Origin: a virus
Lineage: Duplodnaviria > Caudoviricetes
Reading direction: 5' to 3' (one strand)
Length of the DNA: 60,839 bases
Virus record (IMG/VR): IMGVR_UViG_3300032233_001802
Location: 1 to 60,839 of that record
This document shows positions 10,655-43,390 of this stretch, piece after piece. The notes under the pieces are model-generated. The model did no database searches. It was not told the origin of the DNA and saw only the letters and a program-made list of their open reading frames with translations. Made by a program: the position numbers and the translations under genes. Each line of letters starts with the position of its first letter. Positions within the stretch are counted from its first letter, which is position 1.

Positions 10655-13540
10655 TTACACCATTGATACTGTAGTGAATGCGCTTGGGTGAGCAAAGTCT
10701 TTTGCTAGTGCGCGCATGAATGAACTTTCTGATGTACGAGTACCAGCTATTGGTAATTTGTTCTGCTGCGGTGGTGATTGTGCCTTTGATCCTCCACCAG
10801 AAACATTTACTGAATTATCAGATGCTGGTGCAGTTGCTGCAGCAGTCATTTGAGCTGCAGCCAATTGATTTGATTGTTCTGACATCTGCCCACCAAGACC
10901 ATTTTGCTGAGGCTGTAGATTTTGAAGAATCTGTGTGGTGTCTGCTTTAATAGCATTAAGAATATCCATTGGTCCACCAGCACCACCAGTTTGTGCTGAT
11001 GCATTCATTAATCCAGGACCTTGTCCTGCTGCAGCTGGCGCAGCCTCTCCACCACCTGGAGCAGCCTCTCCACCCATGCCGCCTCCACCACTTGGAGCAG
11101 CACCTCCTCCACCACTTGGAGCAGCACCTCCACCACCACTTGGTGCTGCAGCAAGTTGCGGTCCACCGCCTCCCCCTCCACCGCCTCCCCCTCCACCGCC
11201 AGCTGGAGCGGCGACGTCGACAGCGCCACCACCTAATTCTTGAGAATACTTGTCAACCTTTGCAAGTATCTCAGCGCCATATCCTTTAGATAGATCTAGG
11301 TTGCCACCGATTGCTTTCGTGACTGCCATGTTGGCTGATTTTTGATCTGCGAAATCTTGCTTGCCTTTCAGCGCAGTCATTACATATGCTGAAGCAATTT
11401 TAGCTGCTACTGTTGGATCATTAGCCAAATCTGGATTACTTACGAGGTCTGCTCCAACTTTCTTTCCATAGAATGCATAATTATTTTTACCAGTTAACTG
11501 AATAAACCCGCGACCACGATACTTGAATCCATCACCTTCTTCGGTGTTACCCATTGATTGGCCAATTTTTGTATCTTTTCCATACATCAATTCGCCCATT
11601 TTGTATGGGTCTTTCTTGATTACATCCAGTTCAGCATCAGAATATTTTGCTGCGCGTTTTGTGAAGATCTTACGAATACGATCATTGGATGTTCCACCAT
11701 AACTTAGATTTTCACTCTTAGGTTGGAAATTAGATTCTTTTTTGATATTTGCAAGTAATGCAACCTGTGCATACTTGTTAGTTATGCCAGCTTCAGACAT
11801 GGCTGCGGCAATTGCTCCAGCAACTCCACCTGTCGGAGGAGCAGCCGCTTTACCGCCAGAAGGTGCAGCTGGAGTTTCTGGTTTAGGTGCAGCACCACCC
11901 CAACTTCCAGATGCACCACCGCCACCAAATTGTCCACCACCACCAGAGAATTTAGGTCCTGATGCTTTAGTCGCTGGTGCTGTCGCTGGTGCTGTCGCTG
12001 GTGCCTTACCAGCCGCTGCAGGTGGTGGTGCTGTTTGTGAGGTTCCAGCTGTGGCTGCAGCAGCTGCAGAACTTTGTGCTGGTTGAGCTGCGCCTGGGGC
12101 TGGACCCTTTTCGCTCTTTTTATCTTCTTTCTTAGCCTCCATGCCAAGTTTATTTTTCACCCAACCAGAACCAATCTCCATCGCCATATTCATATTGTCT
12201 TTGAATCTTGGATCTTTTTCTGGAGGCAATCCAAAAATATCTTCATAACCATCGCGAATAACACTTGCAAGAGAAGCAGCAATGGCTGCTGGTGCACCAA
12301 CAGCAGCACCAACTCCAGTTAATTGAGCAGTTGAGCCAGCAATTGCGGTAGCATCCAAGCCCATGCCAACCCAGTCGCCCTTTGCTGCGTGCTTGACCAT
12401 ATCCCAGCCGCCAAAAAGAATTCCAGCACCAGCAATAGACTTTCCGAGAATTTTCCCTGATTTTTCTCCGAGTAACTTAATTACTTTTCCAGCAACATCA
12501 CCAGCTTCTGCAACTTTTGCACCACCTGTTGCAAGTTTTTTTGCAGTTTTGCCGTAACCGAGAGCGCCAGCAGCTCTGGATGCTAAATTGGCTGCGCCTT
12601 TACCCAGTTTACCAGCAGTTTGTGTAACTTTCCCTGCTGCCTTTGATACTAATTTAAGACCCTTTGCTGTGGCTCTGCTTAGAATTCCAAGTCCGTCAGA
12701 TTCACCGCCACCAGCCTGAATTGAATTGAGTTTTTCCTGAACGGATTTTGTATCATACTCACCCAGTGACTTTAGAATTGCTTCTAGAGTCTCAACGATT
12801 TTTATCTGTGGATCTTCATCTGCACTAATTTTCTTTGTAAGTGCATCAGTGGCAGCAGATTGAGTGGTGTTTTTGTTTTGTTTATCTTGTTTGTTATTGA
12901 AATTAGCAAAGGTGGCTTCTTTTGATTTTGCAAATTGACCTTGTTTATTTCTGTATAGAATCTTCCCCGTCTTAGGATCGATCTCAGAAGTGAATCCTCT
13001 ATTGACAAGAGTGAACTTTGCTAGTGATTGAACTATGTTTCTAATGCCGATGATTTCTTTCATCAGCTGGTTGGAATTAATCGTAGATTTGGAAGATCCG
13101 CCACCACCCTTTGGCTTTGGTTCTTTCTCTTTTTTATCCAATCCTAGACTTTCTTTGGCTTTCTTTATTTCTTCTTCTGAAGCCAGTTTATCATATTTTT
13201 TTCTAAACTCTTTTCCGACTTTAAGACCAAATGCCTCGAAAATTCTAGAGCGGCTCGCCTTTGTACCCATCGTGGCGATTTGATATTCTTCTTGAGCCTT
13301 CTTTTCGGCTTTTTTACCCGCACTACGTTGACCGAAAAACCCTTTACCTTCTGATTCTGCAGCTCTTCTTGCCTTATCATAGGTTTTCTGCATAACATCA
13401 TCAACTTCAGGCTCAGCCTTATCTTTTTTAGGCTTGATGCCAGCTTCGCGCATGACATTTCCCAGGACCTTACGACCCTGTTTAGTCTTAGCCAACTCTT
13501 TGATAGATTCGGTTAATTCTTTTTCGGATATATTTGCCAT
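10655..13540 (-). CDS. baseplate hub / tape-measure-like protein with GH19 (chitinase/lysozyme-like) muralytic domain
   Basis: ESNFQPKSENL...DGFKYRGRGFIQLTGKNNY...NPDL GH19 motifs; Gly/Ala/Pro-rich linkers; position downstream of gp26/gp51. Confidence 0.8.
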   Translation of the reverse strand: MANISEKELTESIKELAKTKQGRKVLGNVMREAGIKPKKDKAEPEVDDVMQKTYDKARRAAESEGKGFFGQRSAGKKAEKKAQEEYQIATMGTKASRSRIFEAFGLKVGKEFRKKYDKLASEEEIKKAKESLGLDKKEKEPKPKGGGGSSKSTINSNQLMKEIIGIRNIVQSLAKFTLVNRGFTSEIDPKTGKILYRNKQGQFAKSKEATFANFNNKQDKQNKNTTQSAATDALTKKISADEDPQIKIVETLEAILKSLGEYDTKSVQEKLNSIQAGGGESDGLGILSRATAKGLKLVSKAAGKVTQTAGKLGKGAANLASRAAGALGYGKTAKKLATGGAKVAEAGDVAGKVIKLLGEKSGKILGKSIAGAGILFGGWDMVKHAAKGDWVGMGLDATAIAGSTAQLTGVGAAVGAPAAIAASLASVIRDGYEDIFGLPPEKDPRFKDNMNMAMEIGSGWVKNKLGMEAKKEDKKSEKGPAPGAAQPAQSSAAAAATAGTSQTAPPPAAAGKAPATAPATAPATKASGPKFSGGGGQFGGGGASGSWGGAAPKPETPAAPSGGKAAAPPTGGVAGAIAAAMSEAGITNKYAQVALLANIKKESNFQPKSENLSYGGTSNDRIRKIFTKRAAKYSDAELDVIKKDPYKMGELMYGKDTKIGQSMGNTEEGDGFKYRGRGFIQLTGKNNYAFYGKKVGADLVSNPDLANDPTVAAKIASAYVMTALKGKQDFADQKSANMAVTKAIGGNLDLSKGYGAEILAKVDKYSQELGGGAVDVAAPAGGGGGGGGGGGGGPQLAAAPSGGGGAAPSGGGGAAPSGGGGMGGEAAPGGGEAAPAAAGQGPGLMNASAQTGGAGGPMDILNAIKADTTQILQNLQPQQNGLGGQMSEQSNQLAAAQMTAAATAPASDNSVNVSGGGSKAQSPPQQNKLPIAGTRTSESSFMRALAKDFAHPSAFTTVSMV

Positions 13541-13740
13541 TATCGCCTAATTTTCTTTTGCTGTTCCAGTAACTTTAGTCTTTCATTTTGCTCTTTGATA
13601 AGATCAACGAGCATCTGCACATAAATTTGCCTTTCCCATGGTATCATATTTTCCAATTCAGTCAAAGAATACTTATGATGATGCATCAAATTGAAGTTAG
13701 TTTTGTAATAATTTACTAACGTCTCATAGCCAAATGTCAG
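13540..13740 (-). CDS. gp51: gp51-like baseplate hub assembly protein (66-codon frame, probably entered by -1 frameshift from gp26; first ATG at 13686); not in the ORF track
   Basis: Manual translation: LTFGYETLVNYYKTNFNLMHHHKYSLTELENMIPWERQIYVQML...; TAATG overlap with the next gene. Confidence 0.85.
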   Translation of the reverse strand: MTFGYETLVNYYKTNFNLMHHHKYSLTELENMIPWERQIYVQMLVDLIKEQNERLKLLEQQKKIRR

Positions 13741-14471
13741 TCGAAAAAATTTAGTAGACCCTCCACATTAAGATGGTGCAAATATCCACACTTTGGACAT
13801 TTAACATCTTGTTCCATAACAACCTTCGGGCTTGTGGTGAAGAAATTTCTAATAGCCTTCATTTGATCCATAGTTAAGTTATCGAAAAACTCTTGCAATT
13901 CTTCTTCGGAAATATCAGACTTCTTATGAATTTCTTCTGAGTCATAGATGTAATCGAGATATTCTGAGACGAACTTATATCCGCTATCCGCAAATTCATC
14001 GTCTAGCGAACTGCTAGAAAAAGATAGAGTCGGATAGTTAAATTTCATTCCAGCAGTTTCGCTGAGTTTAACAATATTACTATGCCCAGCGTCTTCAACA
14101 TACTTTACATTTCTTAGATCCAAGTTGAAATCGATTTTGGCACCGCAATCTTTGGATTCTTCGTTTTCAGGATTAACGATATTATTACACGTGTACACCA
14201 TTGCTGATGTTTCGCTTACCGATTGTATACGAAGATTAACGAAAAACATTTCAATATCAAATGTTGGCAAGGCGTCGACATCGATATCTTCAAGTAAACA
14301 GTTTGAAATAATCTGTTTAATCGCCTTTGTCACATCTTCAAGATTATCTGACTCTTTCGCCATTAAAAGAATCTTTTCTTCCTTCACAAGGAAAGGGCGA
14401 AATTTTACAGATCTGTTCAACGACTTGAGATAAACCTCAAAAATCGGATGATTAATTTTTGGCAACGGCAT
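13737..14471 (-). CDS. gp26: baseplate hub assembly protein
   Basis: MPLPKI...FRPFLVKEEKILLMA...CPKCG...GLLNFFD. Confidence 0.92.
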   Translation of the reverse strand: MPLPKINHPIFEVYLKSLNRSVKFRPFLVKEEKILLMAKESDNLEDVTKAIKQIISNCLLEDIDVDALPTFDIEMFFVNLRIQSVSETSAMVYTCNNIVNPENEESKDCGAKIDFNLDLRNVKYVEDAGHSNIVKLSETAGMKFNYPTLSFSSSSLDDEFADSGYKFVSEYLDYIYDSEEIHKKSDISEEELQEFFDNLTMDQMKAIRNFFTTSPKVVMEQDVKCPKCGYLHHLNVEGLLNFFD

Positions 14472-14502: not shown

Positions 14503-15165
14503 TTAAGTTTCTATACCTCTACCAATAGGTGGTAGAGAACCATTAGGCTCATAATTGTTATTCACAGTAGCTGGTTTAAACGGATCAAATGTACCAGGTG
14601 ACCAGTAATCGTATTTAAAGGTCACTGCTAGTCTATGAAAGTTGTCGTCAGACCAATTTAGACTGAGGGGCGCAATTGATATCGGAAATGCATTGAAAAG
14701 GACAGCTGAATAAATTTTTTGTTCACTAGCTGTAATTTCTGCATTAGCAGGTATCTCTTGATCATCCTCTGTATAGTAGATATCTGTGTATTGATTGATT
14801 TCTATTTTAGGGCTAGTATAGTCATCACGATATCTTGGATTGTAATTATTAATCGGGACGATAGCATTCATCCATCGATCAAACATTTTCTTTTCCCACA
14901 TATCTCCTGAGCATATGAAGGTTAGAGTGATATCTGCAAAACTAGCTGCAGTTGATGCAACTGGAGTAGAAACTCCATAGATTCTATTTTCAACTGCATT
15001 AATATTATATCCTGGAAGTTCTGTGGTCTCGCATTGGAATCGCAAATCGTATGAATTTAGATCTGGGATTCCATTTGGTGGAGAGATTCGAACTTCAAAC
15101 TTTGATGTTTTAGCAAAGTCGTTGTGTCTGCCAAAGTGGTTTAGGAAATCGGATACTTTAAACAT
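14503..15165 (-). CDS. gp54: baseplate tail-tube initiator-like protein (gp54/gp19 fold)
   Basis: CETTELPG, ITLTF, FDRWM, AFPISIAPLSLNW and VTFKY motifs; synteny. Confidence 0.75.
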   Translation of the reverse strand: MFKVSDFLNHFGRHNDFAKTSKFEVRISPPNGIPDLNSYDLRFQCETTELPGYNINAVENRIYGVSTPVASTAASFADITLTFICSGDMWEKKMFDRWMNAIVPINNYNPRYRDDYTSPKIEINQYTDIYYTEDDQEIPANAEITASEQKIYSAVLFNAFPISIAPLSLNWSDDNFHRLAVTFKYDYWSPGTFDPFKPATVNNNYEPNGSLPPIGRGIET

Positions 15166-15713
15166 TAGGTTCGGTACACCATTTTCTCGAATGGAAGGAA
15201 GATAGCCGTTTCCCAGTTATCTGGTTCTATGTAAACCATAGAAGAAACAATATGTGAAAACAGATATCGTTTAATGCATGGCTCGATCATTTTGTAGCGA
15301 CGAGATTTCGAAAGTAATTGGTATGACAATTGAAATTTGGTCGTATCGTCATATTTATCGTTGTTTACGAAATCGTGCAAACGATCTAAAAGAGCCAAAC
15401 GACTATATGGGTCGAGGTAATGCAGATTCAACCCAAGGAATCCGTCTTGATAGAGGTCCATCGGAATGACTAGAGGAAACTTGTCCCATACAGGAAGAAC
15501 GTCCTGGAGTTTGGCGTCGTAGTGATAAAGGTACATCTTTCCGATGAAGGCTCGAGAAGAGATGCGCTTCGGATCGTTAATCAGATTAGAGCGATTAGTC
15601 GGAATTCTGAGTTTAGCAATATTAGCACCGAGCCATGCTCGAGCCTCCGAACTGCGAGGCTTGATTCCAGCCGCAGTTAGCTGCTTGCTTACTTTATCAA
15701 ATAGTGATGGCAT
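15165..15713 (-). CDS. gp2: DNA end protector protein
   Basis: GKMYLYHYDAK...WDKFPLV...GFLGLNLHYL...CIKRYL motifs. Confidence 0.93.
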   Translation of the reverse strand: MPSLFDKVSKQLTAAGIKPRSSEARAWLGANIAKLRIPTNRSNLINDPKRISSRAFIGKMYLYHYDAKLQDVLPVWDKFPLVIPMDLYQDGFLGLNLHYLDPYSRLALLDRLHDFVNNDKYDDTTKFQLSYQLLSKSRRYKMIEPCIKRYLFSHIVSSMVYIEPDNWETAIFLPFEKMVYRT

Positions 15714-15741
15714 TAGAACCTGTTTAAAATTGCTATTTTTA

Positions 15742-15804
15742 TATAAATAAAAGTGTCGGTCACGATATTACGAGTATCCACCGACTCTAGAAACTGTAAA
15801 GGAG
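15742..15804 (+). promoter_or_regulatory. late promoter, hairpin and RBS leader
   Basis: TATAAATA 15742-15749; stem GTCGGT/ACCGAC (15755-15785) with inner GATATT/AGTATC; AAGGAG 15799-15804. Confidence 0.75.
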
Positions 15805-15813
15805 TATTCCAGC

Positions 15814-15882
15814 ATGTCTATTTATTGCGCCATATGCAATTCGCCCCAGCCTTCTCTTAGGTCGTTATCAAAACATTTATGA
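15814..15882 (+). pseudogene. 22-codon C2H2 zinc-finger fragment MSIYCAICNSPQPSLRSLSKHL*, probable endonuclease remnant
   Basis: Strong RBS; C-x2-C-x12-H spacing; stop overlaps the ATG of the gp4 homolog. Confidence 0.6.
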
Positions 15883-16313
15883 ATGGTAAATTTAAGCCAA
15901 GTTTCCCTGAAAAATATGCTGGGGATCCAGATAATATAATCTACAGAAGCAGTTGGGAATTGAGGTTTATGAGCCACCTCGACAAAAATCCTGGGGTGAT
16001 TAAATGGGCTTCTGAGGAATTTTCTATCCCATATCTAGACCCACCAACCAATAGAGTCAGAAGGTATTTTCCCGACTTTATAGTAACAGTTAAGGATAAA
16101 AATGGTGAAGTTAGAGTTACAGTTTTCGAGATAAAACCTAAAGCCCAGACCGTTCCTCCGAATACATCCAAAATTAAGAATAAAAAGAGGCTATTTAAGG
16201 AAGCTGCAACTTGGGGGACTAATCAAGCAAAATGGGAAGCCGCTAAAAGGTATTGCGAAGAAAGAAACTGGGGCTTCCAAATCCTAACCGAGCAAGAACT
16301 GTTCGGAAAATAA
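15879..16313 (+). CDS. gp4: head completion protein / TnsA-like nuclease, in inverted orientation
   Basis: GKFKPSFPEKYAGDP...YRSSWE...WASEE...RYFPDF...EIKP...NQAKWEAA. Confidence 0.9.
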   Translation: MNGKFKPSFPEKYAGDPDNIIYRSSWELRFMSHLDKNPGVIKWASEEFSIPYLDPPTNRVRRYFPDFIVTVKDKNGEVRVTVFEIKPKAQTVPPNTSKIKNKKRLFKEAATWGTNQAKWEAAKRYCEERNWGFQILTEQELFGK

Positions 16314-16363
16314 CCTAAATATTTATTGGTATTTTTAGGACTAAATTTGCCTGAGTATGCCAT
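16313..16363 (-). pseudogene. 5' remnant (17 codons, MAYSGKFSPKNTNKYLG) of the original gp4
   Basis: Manual minus-strand translation matches the gp4 N-terminal pattern; homology ends exactly at the stop codon of the inverted copy. Confidence 0.8.
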
Positions 16364-16370
16364 AATAGAC

Positions 16371-16378
16371 TATTTATA
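16371..16378 (-). promoter_or_regulatory. T4-type late promoter, minus strand
   Basis: tatttata = TATAAATA on the minus strand, 7 nt upstream of the remnant ATG. Confidence 0.8.
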
Positions 16379-16388
16379 GGAACATTCG

Positions 16389-17552
16389 ATGCCAGATTTA
16401 ACTCAACAACGCCAAGCTGAAGGTGTTATTACCAAAACTCAACCGACTGGTCCAAATACAGATCTTCTTGGTAATCCATTTAAATATGAAATTCATAGAT
16501 TCCCACCTAATGTTGGAATGAACAATCGACTACTTCACTGGATTAAATTTACTCCTTGCATACAACAAAAGTCCGACTATCAGGTAACAACAACAGGATT
16601 GTCTAGTGCTGACATCAATAGATCTGGAACTGCAGGAATCCAAGGAGCAAATGGCGGATTTACTGCTGCGCAAATTGCTGAAGCTGTTGGTGGTCTTGCG
16701 CTTTTAAGCACCGCTGGAGGCGCAGCAGATTATCTGGCTGCAGACACTCCTGGAGAAAAGGCAGAAGCAAAGGGTGATATTAAGAAAGGTCTTTTTGGTG
16801 CAGCTGCTTCTGGTCTTATAGTTTCTGCAATTAAACTTGGTCGTAAAACAAGAAGATCAGCCGCTTCTATTTGCTTGTATATGCCAGATACAATCAATCA
16901 ACAATTAGTTAGCGATTATGACCAAGTTAGTCTAACTCAAGCACTCGGAAAGGCTGGACTAACAGGTCAAGCTGGCGGGGCAATTGCCTCTGGGGTAGGA
17001 GAAGCATTAAAAAACGGTGATCTGAAATCTTTCGGTCTTGGTGGTGGAGGAACAGCTGCTGGTGGTTTGGCTGAAGTTGGCGGAATGATTGCGGAAAAAA
17101 CAGGAAACTTCGGTGCTGGAATCGCTGACGTCCTTATGTTTAGTGCTGGCATTGCACAAAACCCTCAAGTTGAATTGCTATTCAAGAGCATTCAAAACAG
17201 AGAATTTTTGTTTGACTATAAATTTGTACCTAGAAATAAGAAAGAAGCGAAAAGCATCATATCAATTATTCAAGAATTTAGATTCCATGCTGCTCCAGAA
17301 ATTCCAGAAGGAAGTTCTGGCAGATATTTTGTTCCTCCATCAGAATTTGATATTGAATTCATGCTTGGTGGAAGTAGAAATCCGAAATTACCAAAAATCT
17401 CGACCTGCGTTTTACAAGGTATTGATGTAAATTATGGAAGTGCAGGACAATGGACCGCATTCGAAGATGGTATGCCAGTAGAAATTAGTTTGCAGCTTCG
17501 ATTTAAGGAAGTTGAAATTATGCACAAGAAACTCATCAAGGATGGCTACTGA
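16389..17552 (+). CDS. gp48: baseplate tail-tube cap
   Basis: ICLYMPD, NPQVELLFK...REFLFDYKFVPRN, CVLQGIDVNY and DGMPV...FKE motifs. Confidence 0.9.
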   Translation: MPDLTQQRQAEGVITKTQPTGPNTDLLGNPFKYEIHRFPPNVGMNNRLLHWIKFTPCIQQKSDYQVTTTGLSSADINRSGTAGIQGANGGFTAAQIAEAVGGLALLSTAGGAADYLAADTPGEKAEAKGDIKKGLFGAAASGLIVSAIKLGRKTRRSAASICLYMPDTINQQLVSDYDQVSLTQALGKAGLTGQAGGAIASGVGEALKNGDLKSFGLGGGGTAAGGLAEVGGMIAEKTGNFGAGIADVLMFSAGIAQNPQVELLFKSIQNREFLFDYKFVPRNKKEAKSIISIIQEFRFHAAPEIPEGSSGRYFVPPSEFDIEFMLGGSRNPKLPKISTCVLQGIDVNYGSAGQWTAFEDGMPVEISLQLRFKEVEIMHKKLIKDGY

Positions 17553-40178: not shown

Positions 40179-41681
40179 ATGCCAAGAAATAATGAATTAG
40201 AAAAAACTTGGTTGCCTGGACCTTCGCGTGGAACACAGACGTTCAATGCTCCATCGAATCTAACCATTCCATATGGTCGTCACAAAGCAACTATCTCTGG
40301 AAGTGGTGGTCCTGGAAATTCTCCGACTGCTCAATATGTTGTTAATTACAATACGAACTATAATGTAGCATATCCGATTGCAAATCAGCCAGCGGCTGCA
40401 TATACTATTCTTTATAGTACAAATTACAACACAGTATATCCTGTCGCAACTCAACCAGAAGCATCTCGTCCTGCCACAGCATGGATTACCAATTATAATA
40501 CCAACTATAATGTAGCATATCCAGTCGGCACGCAGCCAATTGCTTCACAGCCAGCGACTGCATATTCAACAAATTACAACGTTGCTTATCCTATTGCCAC
40601 ACAACCAGAAGGCAATAGACCAGCAACTGCGTACAGTATTTTGTATAATACGAATTACAATGTTGCTTATCCTATTGACACACGACCAGAAGCATCTAGA
40701 CCAGCGAATGCATGGAATACAAATTATAACACTGTAAACTCTTACGGAAATACTAATTACAACGTAGTATATCCTACAGGAAATCAGCCATTATTAGGTG
40801 TTCCTTGGTATATGTTAATATATTTGAATGATGTATTGACAGTTTTTGGAAATTCTAATTCTGTTTTAATATATTCTCCAGGAGGAGGAGTATTCAGCCC
40901 AACATATTTCCCATATGAGGGTATGGCACCAGACGGTCTAAGCGGTCCTTCTCCATGGAATAGTGCTAATTTTGGAACAGTTGATGGTAGTAGTGGTTAT
41001 ATTGCACTATCATATTATACTGGGTTAGCAGAATATACTACTAACTACAACGTCGCATATCCAGTTGGTAATACAAACTATAATGTTGCGTATCCTGTCG
41101 GAAATCAACCAGCAACTGCGTACAATATTCTTTACAATACAAATTATAACGTTGCATATCCAGTTGGAACTCGACCAGAAGCATCGCGACCAATAACTGC
41201 GTATTCGATCAACTATAATACCAATTATAATGTTGCATATCCAGTCGCAAATCAACCTGCAACGGCTTGGGTGACGAACTACAATACAAACTATAATGTT
41301 GCGTACCCAACTGCTAATCAGCCATTGGCAACTCAACCAGCGACTGCGTATACTATTCTGTACAATACGAATTACAACGTCGCATATCCGATCGCAAATC
41401 AGCCAGAGGCATCGCGTCCAGTAACTGCGTACTCCACGAACTACAACGTCGCCTACCCAATCGCAACTCAGCCAGAGGGTAATCGTCCAATAACCTCATA
41501 TGTTCCAGGAGATGCTGGGGCTGCGACAACGGTTCTCGGTGTGTACTTCCCAGGTGGTGCAATCGGAAGCCCAGCTCCATACGTTTCTGACACTGTCGTA
41601 CAATATTGGGACTATCCAGACAATTCGAATTATCCAGTCGCTGTTCCTCCAGGTGGACAGATCGTAGTCAAAATCGAATAA
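40179..41681 (+). CDS. NYNVAYP-repeat protein A (6+6 complementary repeat units around a unique centre); putative adhesin
   Basis: Repeats seen directly; termini paralogous to 41726..43390. Confidence 0.85.
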   Translation: MPRNNELEKTWLPGPSRGTQTFNAPSNLTIPYGRHKATISGSGGPGNSPTAQYVVNYNTNYNVAYPIANQPAAAYTILYSTNYNTVYPVATQPEASRPATAWITNYNTNYNVAYPVGTQPIASQPATAYSTNYNVAYPIATQPEGNRPATAYSILYNTNYNVAYPIDTRPEASRPANAWNTNYNTVNSYGNTNYNVVYPTGNQPLLGVPWYMLIYLNDVLTVFGNSNSVLIYSPGGGVFSPTYFPYEGMAPDGLSGPSPWNSANFGTVDGSSGYIALSYYTGLAEYTTNYNVAYPVGNTNYNVAYPVGNQPATAYNILYNTNYNVAYPVGTRPEASRPITAYSINYNTNYNVAYPVANQPATAWVTNYNTNYNVAYPTANQPLATQPATAYTILYNTNYNVAYPIANQPEASRPVTAYSTNYNVAYPIATQPEGNRPITSYVPGDAGAATTVLGVYFPGGAIGSPAPYVSDTVVQYWDYPDNSNYPVAVPPGGQIVVKIE

Positions 41682-41725: not shown

Positions 41726-43390
41726 ATGTCAAAGAGTTCCGATTTAAATAAAAGCTGGATCGGCGCAGGTGCAAGAGGGACGCAAACTTTTAATGCGCCT
41801 AGCAACCTGTCGATTGCCTATGGGCGCTATAAAGGAACAGTTTCTGGTCGCGGTGGTTCGGGAAATGTTCCCACAGCAGCCTCATATGTGATCAATTATA
41901 ACACGAATTATAACGTCGCCTATCCTATTGCGACTCAACCGATCGCAACTCAGCCTGCAACAACTTGGTCGACCAACTATAACGTCGCATACCCAATTGC
42001 AACACAGCCTCTTGCGACTCAGCCAGCAGTAACTTGGTCGACGAATTATAACGTCGCCTATCCTATTGCGACTCAACCAGCCACTGCATACAGTATTTTG
42101 TACAATACAAATTACAATGTTGCTTATCCAGTTGCGACTCGACCCGAAGCATCGCGTCCAGTAACTGCTTATACTATTCTTTATAACACCAATTATAATG
42201 TTGCTTATCCAATCGCAACTCAGCCAGCCACTGCGTATACAATCACATACAATACCAATTATAACGTTGCATATCCGATTGCTAATCAGCCAGCGACTGC
42301 ATACAGTATTACATACAATACCAATTATAACGTTGCATATCCGATTGCTAATCAGCCAGCGACTGCATACAGTATTACATACAACACAAACTACAACGTG
42401 GCGTATCCAGTCGGGAATCAGCCAGCAACTGGAACTAATCCGCAGAATTGGTCTGGATCTTATTTTTATGTCTATGATGCATATCCAGCGTTTACCAGCT
42501 ACTCAAGTGGTCCTGGTTGTCCAGGTTATAGTCCATACAGCACATATTATTTTGATTATTCATTCGGTTATCCAGTGGGAGTATGGACGGGTGGGTATTT
42601 TAGCTGTAGTGGAGGAACTCCAAACTACACTACAAATTATAACGTCGTCTATCCTGTTGCAAATCAACCAGAATCTGGTCGCCCAGTAAATGCATACTCA
42701 ACAAATTACAACGTCGCCTATCCTATTGCAACTCAACCAGAATCTGGTCGCCCAGTAAATGCATACTCAACAAATTACAACGTTGCTTATCCAGTTGCAA
42801 CTCGACCAGAATCTGGTCGCCCAGTAACTGCATACTCAACAAACTATAATGTAGTGTATCCAGTTGCAACTCAGCCTGAAGCATCTAGACCAGCAACTGC
42901 CTATACTATTCTTTATAACACAAACTATAATGTTGCCTACCCGATTGCTACACAGCCTGAAGCATCTAGACCAATTACTGCATATTCAACCAATTATAAC
43001 GTTGCATACCCGATTGCGACTCAGCCAGCCAATGCTTGGGTGAGCAATTATAACACAAACTATAACGTAGCGTATCCGATTGCGACTCAGCCAGCGAATG
43101 CTTGGACGACCAATTATAATACCAATTATAATGTGGCGTATCCGATTGCAACTCAGCCTGAAGCCAATCGCCCAGTTACTTCTTATACTCCAGGAAATAC
43201 TGGAACCGCAACGACTGTTCTTGGTGTCTACTTCCCAGGAGGACCGATTGATCTTTCTGGATTCGCTGGTCCTGCAGGAACTGCACCATATGTAAGCGAT
43301 ACAGTAGTTGCATACTACTCATTCCCAGACAATAGCACTTATCCAGTGGCTGTGCCTTCGGGTGGACAAATTGTGGTTAAAATTGAATAA
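41726..43390 (+). CDS. NYNVAYP-repeat protein B (8+8 complementary repeat units around a unique centre); putative adhesin
   Basis: Repeats seen directly; shares GTQTFNAPSNL and GGQIVVKIE termini with protein A; late-like CTAAATA at 41692. Confidence 0.85.
   Translation: MSKSSDLNKSWIGAGARGTQTFNAPSNLSIAYGRYKGTVSGRGGSGNVPTAASYVINYNTNYNVAYPIATQPIATQPATTWSTNYNVAYPIATQPLATQPAVTWSTNYNVAYPIATQPATAYSILYNTNYNVAYPVATRPEASRPVTAYTILYNTNYNVAYPIATQPATAYTITYNTNYNVAYPIANQPATAYSITYNTNYNVAYPIANQPATAYSITYNTNYNVAYPVGNQPATGTNPQNWSGSYFYVYDAYPAFTSYSSGPGCPGYSPYSTYYFDYSFGYPVGVWTGGYFSCSGGTPNYTTNYNVVYPVANQPESGRPVNAYSTNYNVAYPIATQPESGRPVNAYSTNYNVAYPVATRPESGRPVTAYSTNYNVVYPVATQPEASRPATAYTILYNTNYNVAYPIATQPEASRPITAYSTNYNVAYPIATQPANAWVSNYNTNYNVAYPIATQPANAWTTNYNTNYNVAYPIATQPEANRPVTSYTPGNTGTATTVLGVYFPGGPIDLSGFAGPAGTAPYVSDTVVAYYSFPDNSTYPVAVPSGGQIVVKIE

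Follow-up and report, generated by a model that had tools for sequence, protein, structure and literature searches.

The window, i.e., the whole stretch of DNA analysed (60,839 nt), stems from an uncultured T4-like water phage (IMGVR_UViG_3300032233_001802), and the record is estimated at about 35% of the complete genome. The minus strand carries gp26, a gp54-like gene and gp2. On the plus strand lie a 22-codon zinc-finger stub, a complete homologue of gp4, here called gp4', gp48 and gp53. Between gp4' and gp48, the minus strand keeps a TATAAATA box and 17 codons, MAYSGKFSPKNTNKYLG. On re-reading the sequence, all elements named in the original prediction were found again at the same positions. 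The features of the locus are as follows.

15165..15713, minus strand: gp2, the DNA end protector (phrog_429, E 1.4e-45).
15714..15740, no strand assigned: spacer between the gp2 ATG and the leader of the cassette, no source found.
15743-15736, minus strand: TATAAAAA box, formed by the spacer and 15741-15743, 22 nt before the gp2 ATG.
15741..15813, plus strand: leader of the homing-endonuclease type (covariance model 75.7 bits, the sole significant match in the window).
15742-15749, plus strand: TATAAATA of the leader.
15752-15788, plus strand: conserved hairpin, with covariation.
15785-15791, plus strand: CTCTAGA, part of the leader.
15798-15804, plus strand: AAAGGAG, 9 nt ahead of the ATG at 15814.
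Immediately before the ATG at 15814, plus strand: TCCAGC, part of the leader.
15814..15882, plus strand: C2H2 zinc-finger stub of 22 codons, MSIYCAICNSPQPSLRSLSKHL, aligned with zinc finger-gp4 fusions.
15873..15878, plus strand: deletion junction with ACATTT microhomology (6 nt), where other samples have 448 or 316 nt extra.
15879..16313, plus strand: gp4', a complete foreign nuclease of the gp4 family (TnsA-like fold), inverted relative to gp2, 144 aa.
16313..16363, minus strand: remnant of native gp4, codons 1-17 (ATG...GGT, 16363-16313), with 17 of 17 residues as in the gp4 N-terminus of relatives.
16314..16324, plus strand: CCTAAATATTT, candidate late promoter for gp48-gp53, the complement of AAATATTTAGG, containing CTAAATA.
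16371..16378, minus strand (16378-16371): TATAAATA box, the former promoter of native gp4, at the position equivalent to that upstream of native gp4 in relatives.
16389..17552, plus strand: gp48, the baseplate tail-tube cap (phrog_230, E 8e-56).

According to PMC7824862, which cites Benler et al. 2020, gp4 is a TnsA-like nuclease needed for packaging. When viral contigs were collected via gp2, gp4 proved to be the immediate upstream neighbour of gp2, with the same orientation, in 80 of 80, the identity of the gp2 proteins to that of the window being 69-86%; an intact gp4 co-oriented with gp2 is just what had been expected in close relatives. The stop of native gp4 overlaps the start of gp2 in these relatives (TAATG), which links the two genes translationally. 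In the window, gp4' diverges from gp2 and points toward gp48, the first gene of the divergent operon. It thus lacks the same-strand placement upstream of gp2, which is a matter of arrangement, not of family membership. A blastn search of the locus against cultured phages gave one short match, and the best gp4 matches in cultured phages reach only 50-54%.

The 17 codons on the minus strand are a true remnant of native gp4, as had been proposed. Native gp4 of the relatives begins MAYSGKFSPKNTNKYLGDP..., and every codon in the 51 nt of the remnant agrees with native gp4, the promoter box being at its usual position. The GGT of the remnant ends on the base that pairs with the last A of the plus-strand TAA of gp4'. 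By itself, the TATAAATA box shows no enrichment in the window (5 matches vs 4.2 expected), and several relatives have CTAAATA in its place upstream of gp4. Codons 14-17 of gp4 (AAATATTTAGG) are invariant, third codon positions included, in all 35 distinct native gp4 5' ends, and the breakpoint of the cassette adjoins this 11-nt motif. Read on the opposite strand as CCTAAATATTT, it may, to judge from its sequence, be the late promoter of gp48-gp53.

The orientation of gp4 is not fixed across T4-like phages, because L210, a member of another phage group, has divergent gp2 and gp4 without cassette features. In the cyanophages S-CAM9 and DSL-LC02, gp4, gp2, gp48 and gp53 all share one orientation, with gp4 directed toward gp48. 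Such cases could be taken to mean that the plus-strand gp4 is ancestral and that the 17 minus-strand codons are chance or regulatory sequence. This is hardly credible. It is contradicted by the co-orientation in all 80 relatives, by the codon-for-codon remnant behind its promoter box and by L096, which has the identical 17-codon remnant ahead of an uninverted cassette, and the ancestral plus-strand orientation was rejected.

An assembly artefact that joined two strains at 15880 or 16313 had been named as a danger in the original prediction. Strains with native gp4 that share 30-mers of the flanks do co-occur (records 5 and 13), and one co-occurring relative has 379 different bases between 15717 and 16313, which corresponds to a native-size gp4. 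The runs containing the stretch are all DNA; X1-X4 belong to one study, X5 to another. However, in X1 the whole stretch lies in a contig of 28,987 bp, and record 4 of X2, an independent contig from a second sample (656 bp, depth 140), is unbroken across 15688-16348 and bridges both junctions. Record 12 of X5, from the other study, covers 15693-16342 with an in-frame insert and ends only 29 nt beyond the right junction. A chimera is thus extremely improbable.

The protein gp4' is a full-length match to the gp4 family. It hits phrog_218 ('head closure') with E 5.8e-56 over residues 2-142 of 144 and Pfam TnsA-like_N (PF08722) with E 1.2e-23 and 83.9 bits (cut-off 26.5). The catalytic residues of the restriction fold (E, PD, ExK) are present in WASEEF, YFPDF and FEIKP; SEE, PDF and EIK fall into columns that are invariant in one alignment and nearly invariant in another. 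The original prediction had called the nuclease TnsA-like. This holds for the fold, but nothing points to transposition. gp4' does not have the make-up of a Tn7 TnsA: only the N-terminal nuclease domain matches, and its neighbours are phage structural genes. Nor is a Vsr-type catalytic domain recognisable by sequence in gp4' or the fusions described below; Pfam scans of both gave no match to DUF559 or Vsr.

The descent of gp4' is foreign. It is 46-58% identical to the native gp4s of the relatives, far from the values for gp2 given above. The 40 distinct native gp4s fall together in a single clade (SH-aLRT 99), with the window outside it. Its sister is P0012 (support 99), its nearest relative, to the nuclease part of which it is 80% identical, and the two lie within a clade of seven fusions plus the window (support 96). 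gp4' thereby groups with rare proteins of 270-350 aa, zinc-finger/NUMOD3-gp4 nucleases. In viral and metagenome contigs, no relative of gp4' above 56% identity came up. The trees and the identity to P0012 bear out the claim that the gp4 homologue on the plus strand came from outside, from a zinc-finger-fusion lineage.

Twenty-one proteins (187-351 aa) carry PF08722 behind extra N-terminal sequence, which in most of them includes a C2H2 finger, a zinc ribbon, GRPKGSKNK or NUMOD3. NUMOD3 scores above the Pfam cut-off in P0011, P0017, P0018 and P0020. A nuclease joined to modular DNA-binding domains is found in these four and in P0012 and L096; in the window just the 22-codon stub is left. Longer zinc finger-gp4 fusions had been predicted, and they exist (P0012, L096, L097 and others). 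P0012 comes from a protein collection only and is absent from the viral contigs. In its AlphaFold model (mean pLDDT 87), residues 164-309 match TnsA (1t0f_A; Z 10.0, rmsd 3.5, 119 aligned) and residues 1-37 a viral zinc finger (Z 4.3, rmsd 1.6, 36 aligned). The similarity of the nuclease domain to Vsr (1cw0_A, Z 7.1) and to I-Bth0305I (3r3p_B, Z 5.2) is a likeness at the fold level only. A sequence search of solved structures with P0019 and P0012 yielded nothing meaningful.

Fusions with known context sit at the gp4 locus. L096 and L097 have the promoter, the 17-codon remnant, the same leader and a fusion of 324 aa in native orientation, the stop of which overlaps the gp2 ATG. The original prediction had not foreseen an uninverted version with the identical remnant, as seen in L096. 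Among 120 loci with the native 5' motif, 75 have a native-size ORF, 44 ran off the available DNA and one has the cassette; its presence at one of 76 assessable loci is sporadic, at a conserved site. In the gp2 tree, both cassette-bearing genomes pair with a native-gp4 genome each (supports 93 and 94), and the starred branches of this tree are compatible with a single origin of the cassette. A second group of fusions (P0017-P0020, L235-L238) has its nuclease domain nested in the native gp4 clade of its own phage group (support 98), and a search for the hairpin leader in this group gave 0 hits. Because the nuclease of this group is native-like and without the hairpin leader, fusions may arise in place rather than spread as a single element.

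The leader of gp4' contains a conserved hairpin. Pairing is kept in 60 of 60 pair cells (five leaders), both partners vary in 7 of the 12 pairs, and the covariation score was reached in none of 500 shuffles. The folding energy of the single sequence is not significant (z -0.87), and Rfam has no family match in 15650-16450 at E up to 1. The motif, TATAAATA plus hairpin, occurs at at least 120 viral loci ahead of endonuclease ORFs (GIY-YIG, HNH, NUMOD3). Downstream of it, 100 distinct ORFs were found among the loci listed, of which 67 were scanned. Domains such as NUMOD3, HNH, HNH_3, GIY-YIG, SegE or I-TevI_DNA-bd are present in 35 of the 67, two are the L096/L097 fusions, and 30 have no Pfam match, 23 of these matching PHROGs annotated as homing or HNH endonuclease. 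Endonuclease-type ORFs thus follow the leader in 58 of the 65 non-gp4 cases scanned; structural genes do not. The leader is of the endonuclease type, as originally claimed, and the cassette of gp4' has the corresponding expression signals, a late promoter box and a 5' hairpin.

Alternatively, the fusions might be ordinary, immobile gp4 variants with an accessory DNA-binding domain, e.g., one that grips the end of the packaged DNA. The window would then result from a swap of gp4 alleles plus inversion and deletion, and the leader would be a general late-gene leader borrowed by recombination. The position of the fusions at the gp4 locus fits this explanation, and so does the second group with its native-like nuclease domain and without the hairpin leader. 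Also, no second gp4-type domain was found in the fusion-bearing records, which are 7-13% complete. The company of the leader, however, is endonuclease-type ORFs and not structural genes, and NUMOD3 is typical of homing endonucleases according to PMC2677866. Moreover, the fusions are rare and scattered, and in both groups a 5' stub of native gp4 remains as a duplicate, as expected of an insertion. Accessory-domain variants are thus an unlikely explanation.

Between gp2 and the leader, AGGxxTCTAATG is the only part of the spacer that resembles the end of native gp4; on its minus strand, the spacer has an AGG that resembles a Shine-Dalgarno site and would serve gp2. No source of the 28 nt from 15714 to 15741 emerged from a fuzzy search through all the loci retrieved. 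The TATAAAAA box is a candidate for an alternative promoter of gp2. A scan for sigma-70 promoters and terminators gave matches at chance level. By eye, no inverted repeats longer than about 6 nt (TATTTT / AAAATA) flank the cassette.

In alignment with the full-length fusions, the stub corresponds to their residues 1-21, and 19 of the 21 are identical to P0012. It keeps Cys5, Cys8 and His21 and is without the fourth zinc ligand; C-C-H-H is invariant in the full-length fusions. The proposal that the stub was made by internal deletion is corroborated by long forms in other samples. At 15873-15878, where the 6-nt microhomology marks the junction, record 8 of run X3 has 448 extra bases and record 12 of X5 has 316, as computed from record coordinates, both pieces of each record overlapping on 15873-15878. 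Both numbers are 1 mod 3, so that the frame of the stub joins that of gp4' in the long forms. In X3 and X5 the long forms occupy the same inverted position, which implies that the inversion preceded the deletion. This order of events had not been foreseen.

The TGA of the stub overlaps the ATG of gp4' at 15879 (ATGA), and translational coupling by this overlap had been suggested. The overlap is present in the window, but its exact form is not conserved: the dominant variant of X2 has a 5-nt deletion at 15840, by which, as worked out, the stub would stop some 20 nt short of the gp4' ATG. Because this variant is dominant, coupling by the ATGA overlap is not essential; reinitiation at gp4' is possible in this variant. 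Full-length, shortened, deleted and frameshifted forms of the cassette coexist across related samples.

It is probable, as far as sequences can tell, that an endonuclease-type cassette replaced gp4, was inverted, later lost its DNA-binding half and now stands in for gp4. Comparison with the relatives shows the ancestral order, which is the usual one in the clade: gp53 and gp48 occupied one strand, and gp4, gp2, gp54 and gp26 the opposite one. From codon 18 to its end, gp4 was then overwritten by a self-contained cassette. This comprised a T4-type late promoter box, the conserved 5' hairpin, a ribosome-binding site and a single ORF for a C2H2 zinc finger, a zinc ribbon, a helical linker and a gp4-type nuclease. 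Of native gp4, only the old promoter and 17 codons survived, presumably because the invariant, palindromic 11-nt motif in codons 14-17 is the promoter of the gp48 operon on the opposite strand. In the lineage of the window the cassette lies inverted, which places gp4' divergent from gp2 and co-oriented with gp48-gp53. A later out-of-frame deletion of 448 nt between two ACATTT repeats removed the DNA-binding region and left the 22-codon stub, its stop overlapping a retained internal Met of the nuclease domain.

In the present phage, gp4' would be the head-completion nuclease. It is predicted to be transcribed late from the cassette promoter. The stub alone has a good Shine-Dalgarno site, and ribosomes would terminate at its end and reinitiate at gp4'. 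The transcript of gp2-gp54-gp26 would start either at the old gp4 promoter and run antisense through gp4', or at the TATAAAAA box. One might object that gp4' is a decaying, non-functional passenger and that a working gp4 is encoded in the roughly 65% of the genome outside the window. The incomplete record, the decay of the stub in the 5-nt-deletion variant and the lack of a Shine-Dalgarno site of gp4' itself within 15 nt agree with this objection. The ORF, however, is intact and keeps all catalytic-motif residues, the canonical locus no longer has an intact native copy, and gp4 is found only next to gp2 in every relative examined. In addition, the deletion form dominates one sample with a depth of 140 vs 22 for the native-type relative. 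A mere passenger is very improbable.

Homing endonucleases pass through a life cycle of invasion, fixation, decay and loss. The coexistence of full-length, shortened, deleted and frameshifted cassettes resembles this cycle, and the replacing cassette would have reached the stage of decay. In contrast to the cycle, the decay would stop at the nuclease half, which presumably cannot be lost because it is now the only gp4. Judging from the sequences, the chances are about even that the cassette was a free-standing homing endonuclease with the gp4 nuclease fold as its cutting domain.

How does gp4' compare to known systems? Like T4 gp4, it matches the family over its full length, keeps E / PD / ExK and adjoins gp2. 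It differs from T4 gp4 in being foreign, inverted relative to gp2, descended from a fusion with DNA-binding modules and, presumably, expressed from the cassette promoter instead of the native one. With the free-standing homing endonuclease genes seg/mob of T4-like phages, which are under late-promoter and hairpin control, the cassette shares its self-contained nature, a TATAAATA box and hairpin before the ribosome-binding site, the ability to sit antisense to its neighbours, the sporadic occurrence and host promoters embedded beside it. PMC2988022 reviews how T4 homing endonucleases are regulated, covers segD, which lies in antisense orientation, and describes the hairpin of seg43(25) as not covering the ribosome-binding site. 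Unlike seg/mob products, the nuclease of the cassette is gp4/TnsA-like instead of GIY-YIG or HNH and has its DNA-binding part N-terminal; the cassette has also taken the place of an essential gene, of which it brings a homologue, and does not simply lie between genes.

Free-standing endonuclease genes of environmental phages have TATAAATA and a hairpin in the 5' UTR, and the Vsr-like ones carry NUMOD3 N-terminal to a restriction-fold nuclease, as stated in PMC2677866 (Dassa et al. 2009). The cassette resembles these putative Vsr-like (PD-(D/E)xK) homing endonucleases of 'fractured genes' from aquatic metagenomes and I-Bth0305I in the N-terminal position of NUMOD3 or DNA-binding modules. It further resembles the former in the 5' UTR hairpin with TATAAATA, according to the description in the text of PMC2677866, and in the insertion into conserved phage genes, whereby the host gene is broken. 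The differences are that the cassette nuclease belongs to the gp4 family by sequence, that inteins are absent and that the broken host gene would be functionally replaced, not rejoined. In the literature searched, which comprised journals open without subscription, no account came up of NUMOD or zinc-finger modules joined to a gp4-type nuclease, or of an endonuclease cassette that replaced gp4.

The homing endonuclease genes of T4-like phages are usually viewed as passengers that the phage can do without, whether they lie in host genes or between them. The passenger of the window, by contrast, brings along a homologue of the same essential gene that it displaced, and this homologue is predicted to work. 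Several stages are caught across samples: native gp4 still intact, the full-length fusion both in native orientation and inverted, the shortened and the deleted form and the frameshifted stub. They outline a concrete route by which a foreign copy may take over from a core structural or morphogenetic gene and be re-oriented, which is relevant to core-gene trees and gene order as used in classifying uncultured phages.

A more tentative proposal, with a modest chance of being right, is that the zinc-finger/NUMOD3-gp4 fusions are an unrecognised family of phage homing endonucleases that cut with a head-completion nuclease, the window being an end state and the leader portable. If true, the target of the fusions would be the 5' end of native gp4, which is invariant and bears the promoter; they would destroy this allele and put in their own working copy. 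The phage could then never fully discard the element, as its gp4 copy has been replaced, and the window would display a selfish element reduced to a foreign, inverted, indispensable gp4. The leader with the first codons (M-S-(S)-x-I-Y) would be an expression module that is portable among GIY-YIG, HNH and gp4-type endonuclease genes.

A new layout of endonucleases is suggested by the fusions, with DNA-binding modules N-terminal to a nuclease of gp4/TnsA fold. The widespread, conserved leader might serve as a finder of endonuclease genes in viral metagenomes. As to the N-terminal part of the fusions, a word-based protein search with residues 1-165 of P0012 returned P0012 itself and P0002 only. 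In the ESM Atlas, to be taken as a lead only, the closest neighbours of the N-terminal region of P0012 are viral clusters labelled 'endonuclease family', which have DUF7487 and in some cases DUF559 as well.

As comparison with relatives shows, the native gp4 of this phage was replaced after its codon 17 by a foreign cassette. The cassette consists of an endonuclease-type leader (promoter box, hairpin and ribosome-binding site) and an ORF that joins zinc-finger (ZnF) DNA-binding modules to a gp4 nuclease. By the same comparison, it is inverted in the window's lineage, and a later 448-nt deletion took out its DNA-binding part. When the sequence was read directly, every element named in the original prediction was found in its place:

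13737-14471, minus: gp26
14503-15165, minus: gp54-like tube protein
15165-15713, minus: gp2
15742-15749, plus: TATAAATA box of the leader
15752-15788, plus: leader hairpin
9 nt ahead of the ATG at 15814, plus: AAAGGAG
15814-15882, plus: 22-codon ORF (the stub)
15879-15882, plus: ATGA overlap of stub and gp4'
15879-16313, plus: gp4', a 144-aa gp4 homologue (PF08722, TnsA-like N, E 1.2e-23; phrog_218, 'head closure', E 5.8e-56)
16363-16313, minus: native gp4 remnant, ATG...GGT, encoding MAYSGKFSPKNTNKYLG
16378-16371, minus: TATAAATA box ahead of the remnant
16389-17552, plus: gp48
after gp48, plus: gp53

The last base of the remnant's GGT is complementary to the last base of the gp4' stop codon. 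The source record, a 60.8-kb viral fragment estimated to be 35% complete, contains one gp4-type match. Beside a small ORF that follows gp26 lies a minus-strand ORF of 961 aa (10655-13540) that is rich in Gly, Ala and Pro over long runs, among them GGGGGGGGGGGG and repeated APSGGGGA. TATAAAGAATAGTAT occurs three times in the window, on the minus strand (40402-40416, 42171-42185 and 42903-42917).

A gp2 search of viral contigs yielded 80 loci with 69-86% identity. In 80 of 80, gp4 immediately precedes gp2 and is co-oriented with it, as had been expected, and gp48 and gp53 diverge on the other side. Native gp4 of these relatives begins MAYSGKFSPKNTNKYLGDPTN and is preceded by a TATAAATA or CTAAATA box at the same distance as in the window. 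The minus-strand piece is identical at 17/17 residues and is, as proposed, a true remnant of native gp4. In the relatives, the native stop overlaps the gp2 start as TAATG, of which the window retains only an AGGxxTCTAATG-like trace. The orientation of gp4 is constant in the window's clade, yet varies among T4-like phages: in cyanophages gp4, gp2, gp48 and gp53 are co-oriented, and in L210, a metagenome contig from another T4-like phage group, gp2 and gp4 diverge without cassette features. L210 (118-1154) has gp2 on the minus and gp4 on the plus strand, then gp32 instead of gp48. Its gp4 is sister to the fusion protein P0005, yet lacks extension and leader; it may be another decayed cassette.

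The foreign origin of gp4' is borne out by its phylogeny. It shares 46-58% identity with native gp4 of the relatives found through gp2. Of the 130 gp4 domains in one tree, the 40 distinct native ones group as a single clade (SH-aLRT 99) outside of which the window falls; it sits with fusion proteins in a 5-row clade (support 95). A FastTree of 215 rows groups it with seven fusions (support 96), as sister to P0012 (support 99).

The longer ZnF-gp4 fusions that had been predicted do exist. Locus L096 and its near-twin L097 encode a 324-aa ORF composed of a C2H2 zinc finger, a second zinc-binding stretch, a helical linker and the gp4 domain; the start of gp4' aligns with an internal Met of this fusion. 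Searches of the protein collection added 21 proteins of 187-351 aa with extra N-terminal sequence ahead of PF08722, most of them with finger and ribbon. In one subgroup GRPKGSKNK precedes NUMOD3, which exceeds the Pfam cut-off in P0011, P0017, P0018 and P0020; an AP2 match in one protein is weak and under the cut-off. P0012 (311 aa) is 80% identical to gp4' and starts MSIYCAICSSEQPSLRSLSKHF, so that the stub corresponds to 19 of its first 21 residues. In its AlphaFold model (16-row input alignment, mean pLDDT 87), residues 164-309 resemble TnsA (Foldseek 1f1z_A, E 1.1e-4; VIA 1t0f_A, Z 10.0, rmsd 3.5, 119 aligned) and residues 1-37 a viral zinc finger (Z 4.3, rmsd 1.6, 36 aligned). As a lead only, the nearest ESM Atlas entries to its N-terminal 165 residues are viral 'endonuclease family' clusters that contain DUF7487 and, in some cases, DUF559 too.

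L096 presents the cassette uninverted. Behind gp48 (minus) come TATAAATA, the remnant of 17 codons and, with nothing in between, a window-type leader with the full fusion. This fusion is co-oriented with gp2, and its stop codon overlaps the ATG of that gene. Similarity to the native gene stops behind GGTGA in L096, and behind GGT in the window. The breakpoints thus coincide, and the window carries this replacement with its cassette reversed. Such loci are rare: among those listed from a survey of the native 5' motif, which covered at least 120 viral loci, 75 have a native-size ORF, 44 run beyond the available sequence and one, the L096 contig, has a cassette. The gp2 tree joins the window to L082/L093 and L096 to L102 (supports 93 and 94), all three partners having native gp4; this pairing means two state changes, of which strongly supported branches force no more than one.

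At least part of the stretch is present in 20 public runs, all of DNA. Four were compared, on contigs rather than reads; X1-X4 come from one study, X5 from a different one. X1, which may be the source sample, holds the stretch in a single 28,987-bp contig with zero differences. A 656-bp contig of X2, a second sample (record 4, depth 140), covers 15688-16348 and crosses both junctions, and record 12 of X5 ends just 29 nt beyond the right one; an assembly chimera is thereby dismissed. Relative to the window, the X2 contig has a single substitution and lacks 5 nt at 15840, inside the stub; this deletion is the dominant allele in that sample. It shifts the frame and, as worked out, the stub then ends about 20 nt ahead of the gp4' ATG. 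In X2 record 5 and X5 record 13, 15717 is joined to 16313 across 379 other bases; this is a co-occurring relative with native-size gp4.

Long forms confirm that the stub arose by internal deletion. X3 record 8 matches 15403-15878 and then 15873-15990, X5 record 12 matches 15693-15878 and 15873-16342, each with extra sequence between: 448 and 316 nt, respectively, as computed from record coordinates. Both lengths are 1 mod 3, so that the stub frame joins that of gp4' in ORFs of about 315 and 271 aa. Since 15873-15878 (ACATTT) aligns twice, the deletion has 6 nt of microhomology. The long forms adjoin gp2 inverted; the inversion was thus already present in them. Probably gp4' now does the head-completion job, because its catalytic residues are intact, it is the sole copy seen and the deleted form dominates a sample. 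It would be translated by reinitiation following the stub.

A second set of fusions (P0017-P0020, L235-L238) belongs to a different phage group. In L235-L238, ZnF-NUMOD3-gp4 fusions of 302 aa follow a 6-7-codon remnant of their own group's native gp4 (MSYKGK...) and are co-oriented with it; remnant and TATAAATA box are found some 60-150 nt ahead of the fusion ORF. No hairpin leader was matched in this set. Its nuclease domain nests within its own group's native clade (support 98). The nuclease parts of the fusions therefore do not make up a single clade, and well-supported branches force at least seven changes. Either DNA-binding modules would have been joined to gp4 repeatedly, or recombination within gp4 would have reshuffled the cassette. 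The polyphyly, the native-like nuclease and the missing hairpin leader keep alive another view, in which the fusions are non-mobile gp4 with an accessory DNA-binding domain. That the full-length fusion is, or was, a homing endonuclease targeting native gp4 is about an even bet. The TnsA-like nature of the gp4 nuclease is known (PMC7824862, citing Benler et al. 2020). In the literature searched, no report describes a gp4-type nuclease that carries DNA-binding modules of homing endonucleases, and none describes such a cassette overwriting gp4 and then decaying until a foreign gp4 stands alone.

Leaders of this kind have been described on endonuclease cassettes before. Dassa et al. 2009 (PMC2677866) report on free-standing endonuclease genes from marine metagenomes, in which 15 of 16 5' UTRs have a hairpin, 10 of them together with TATAAATA, and on Vsr-like endonucleases in which NUMOD3 lies on the N-terminal side of the nuclease. 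A T4 review (PMC2988022) reports late-promoter and hairpin control of homing-endonuclease genes, segD as an antisense gene, and a seg43(25) hairpin that leaves the ribosome-binding site uncovered, as does the window's. An exact leader-motif search found four viral loci: L096, L097, L234 (a NUMOD3 ORF behind the leader) and L232 (2571-3161), where an HNH + NUMOD3 gene lies antisense between gp46 and gp47 homologues. A covariance model trained on the leaders of all four gave a single site in the window (75.7 bits; next best 14 bits) and, in about 300 fetched loci, one more, upstream of an HNH_3 ORF in L175, a distant phage. The five leaders, L175's having been found by the structured model and aligned by MAFFT, show standard pairs in 60/60 pair cells and changes on both sides at 7/12 pairs; slid controls are 27-48% paired.

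A looser pattern (TATAAATAAARGTGT N26-30 ACTCTA) shows the leader to be very widespread, at no fewer than 120 viral contig loci (L449-L568). Just downstream of the listed sites are 100 distinct ORFs, with none of at least 25 aa at 5 sites; 67 from fully flanked loci were scanned and 33 incomplete ones excluded. Of these, 37/67 have Pfam families: NUMOD3, HNH, HNH_3, GIY-YIG, SegE_GIY-YIG or I-TevI_DNA-bd in 35, the other two being the L096/L097 fusions. Some are NUMOD3-only. The remaining 30 include 23 whose PHROG matches carry the annotation homing or HNH endonuclease, and 7 without any match. The leader is thus of the endonuclease type, as the original prediction held. Many of its ORFs start M-S-(S)-x-I-Y, like the stub, so the common module extends into the first codons. 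One conserved module thus extends from the promoter box through hairpin and ribosome-binding site to the first codons in unrelated nuclease families, a possible marker for endonuclease genes in viral metagenomes.

Why 17 native codons survive may be explained by a motif in codons 14-17. In gp4 sense, AAATATTTAGG is invariant, third positions included, in 35/35 distinct native 5' ends (from L081-L160) and is the longest invariant run within the first 90 nt. Its opposite strand (window 16314-16324) reads CCTAAATATTT and includes CTAAATA, the heptamer that stands in for TATAAATA ahead of gp4 in several relatives. Because the gp48 strand lacks a box of this kind in the gp48-gp4 intergenic region of only about 30 nt, we read the motif as a candidate late promoter, located inside gp4, for the gp48 operon. 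Its loss to the cassette would be lethal; hence the codons would be kept. The motif could equally be the endonuclease recognition site, or it could be both. It is 11 nt long and contains a palindrome.
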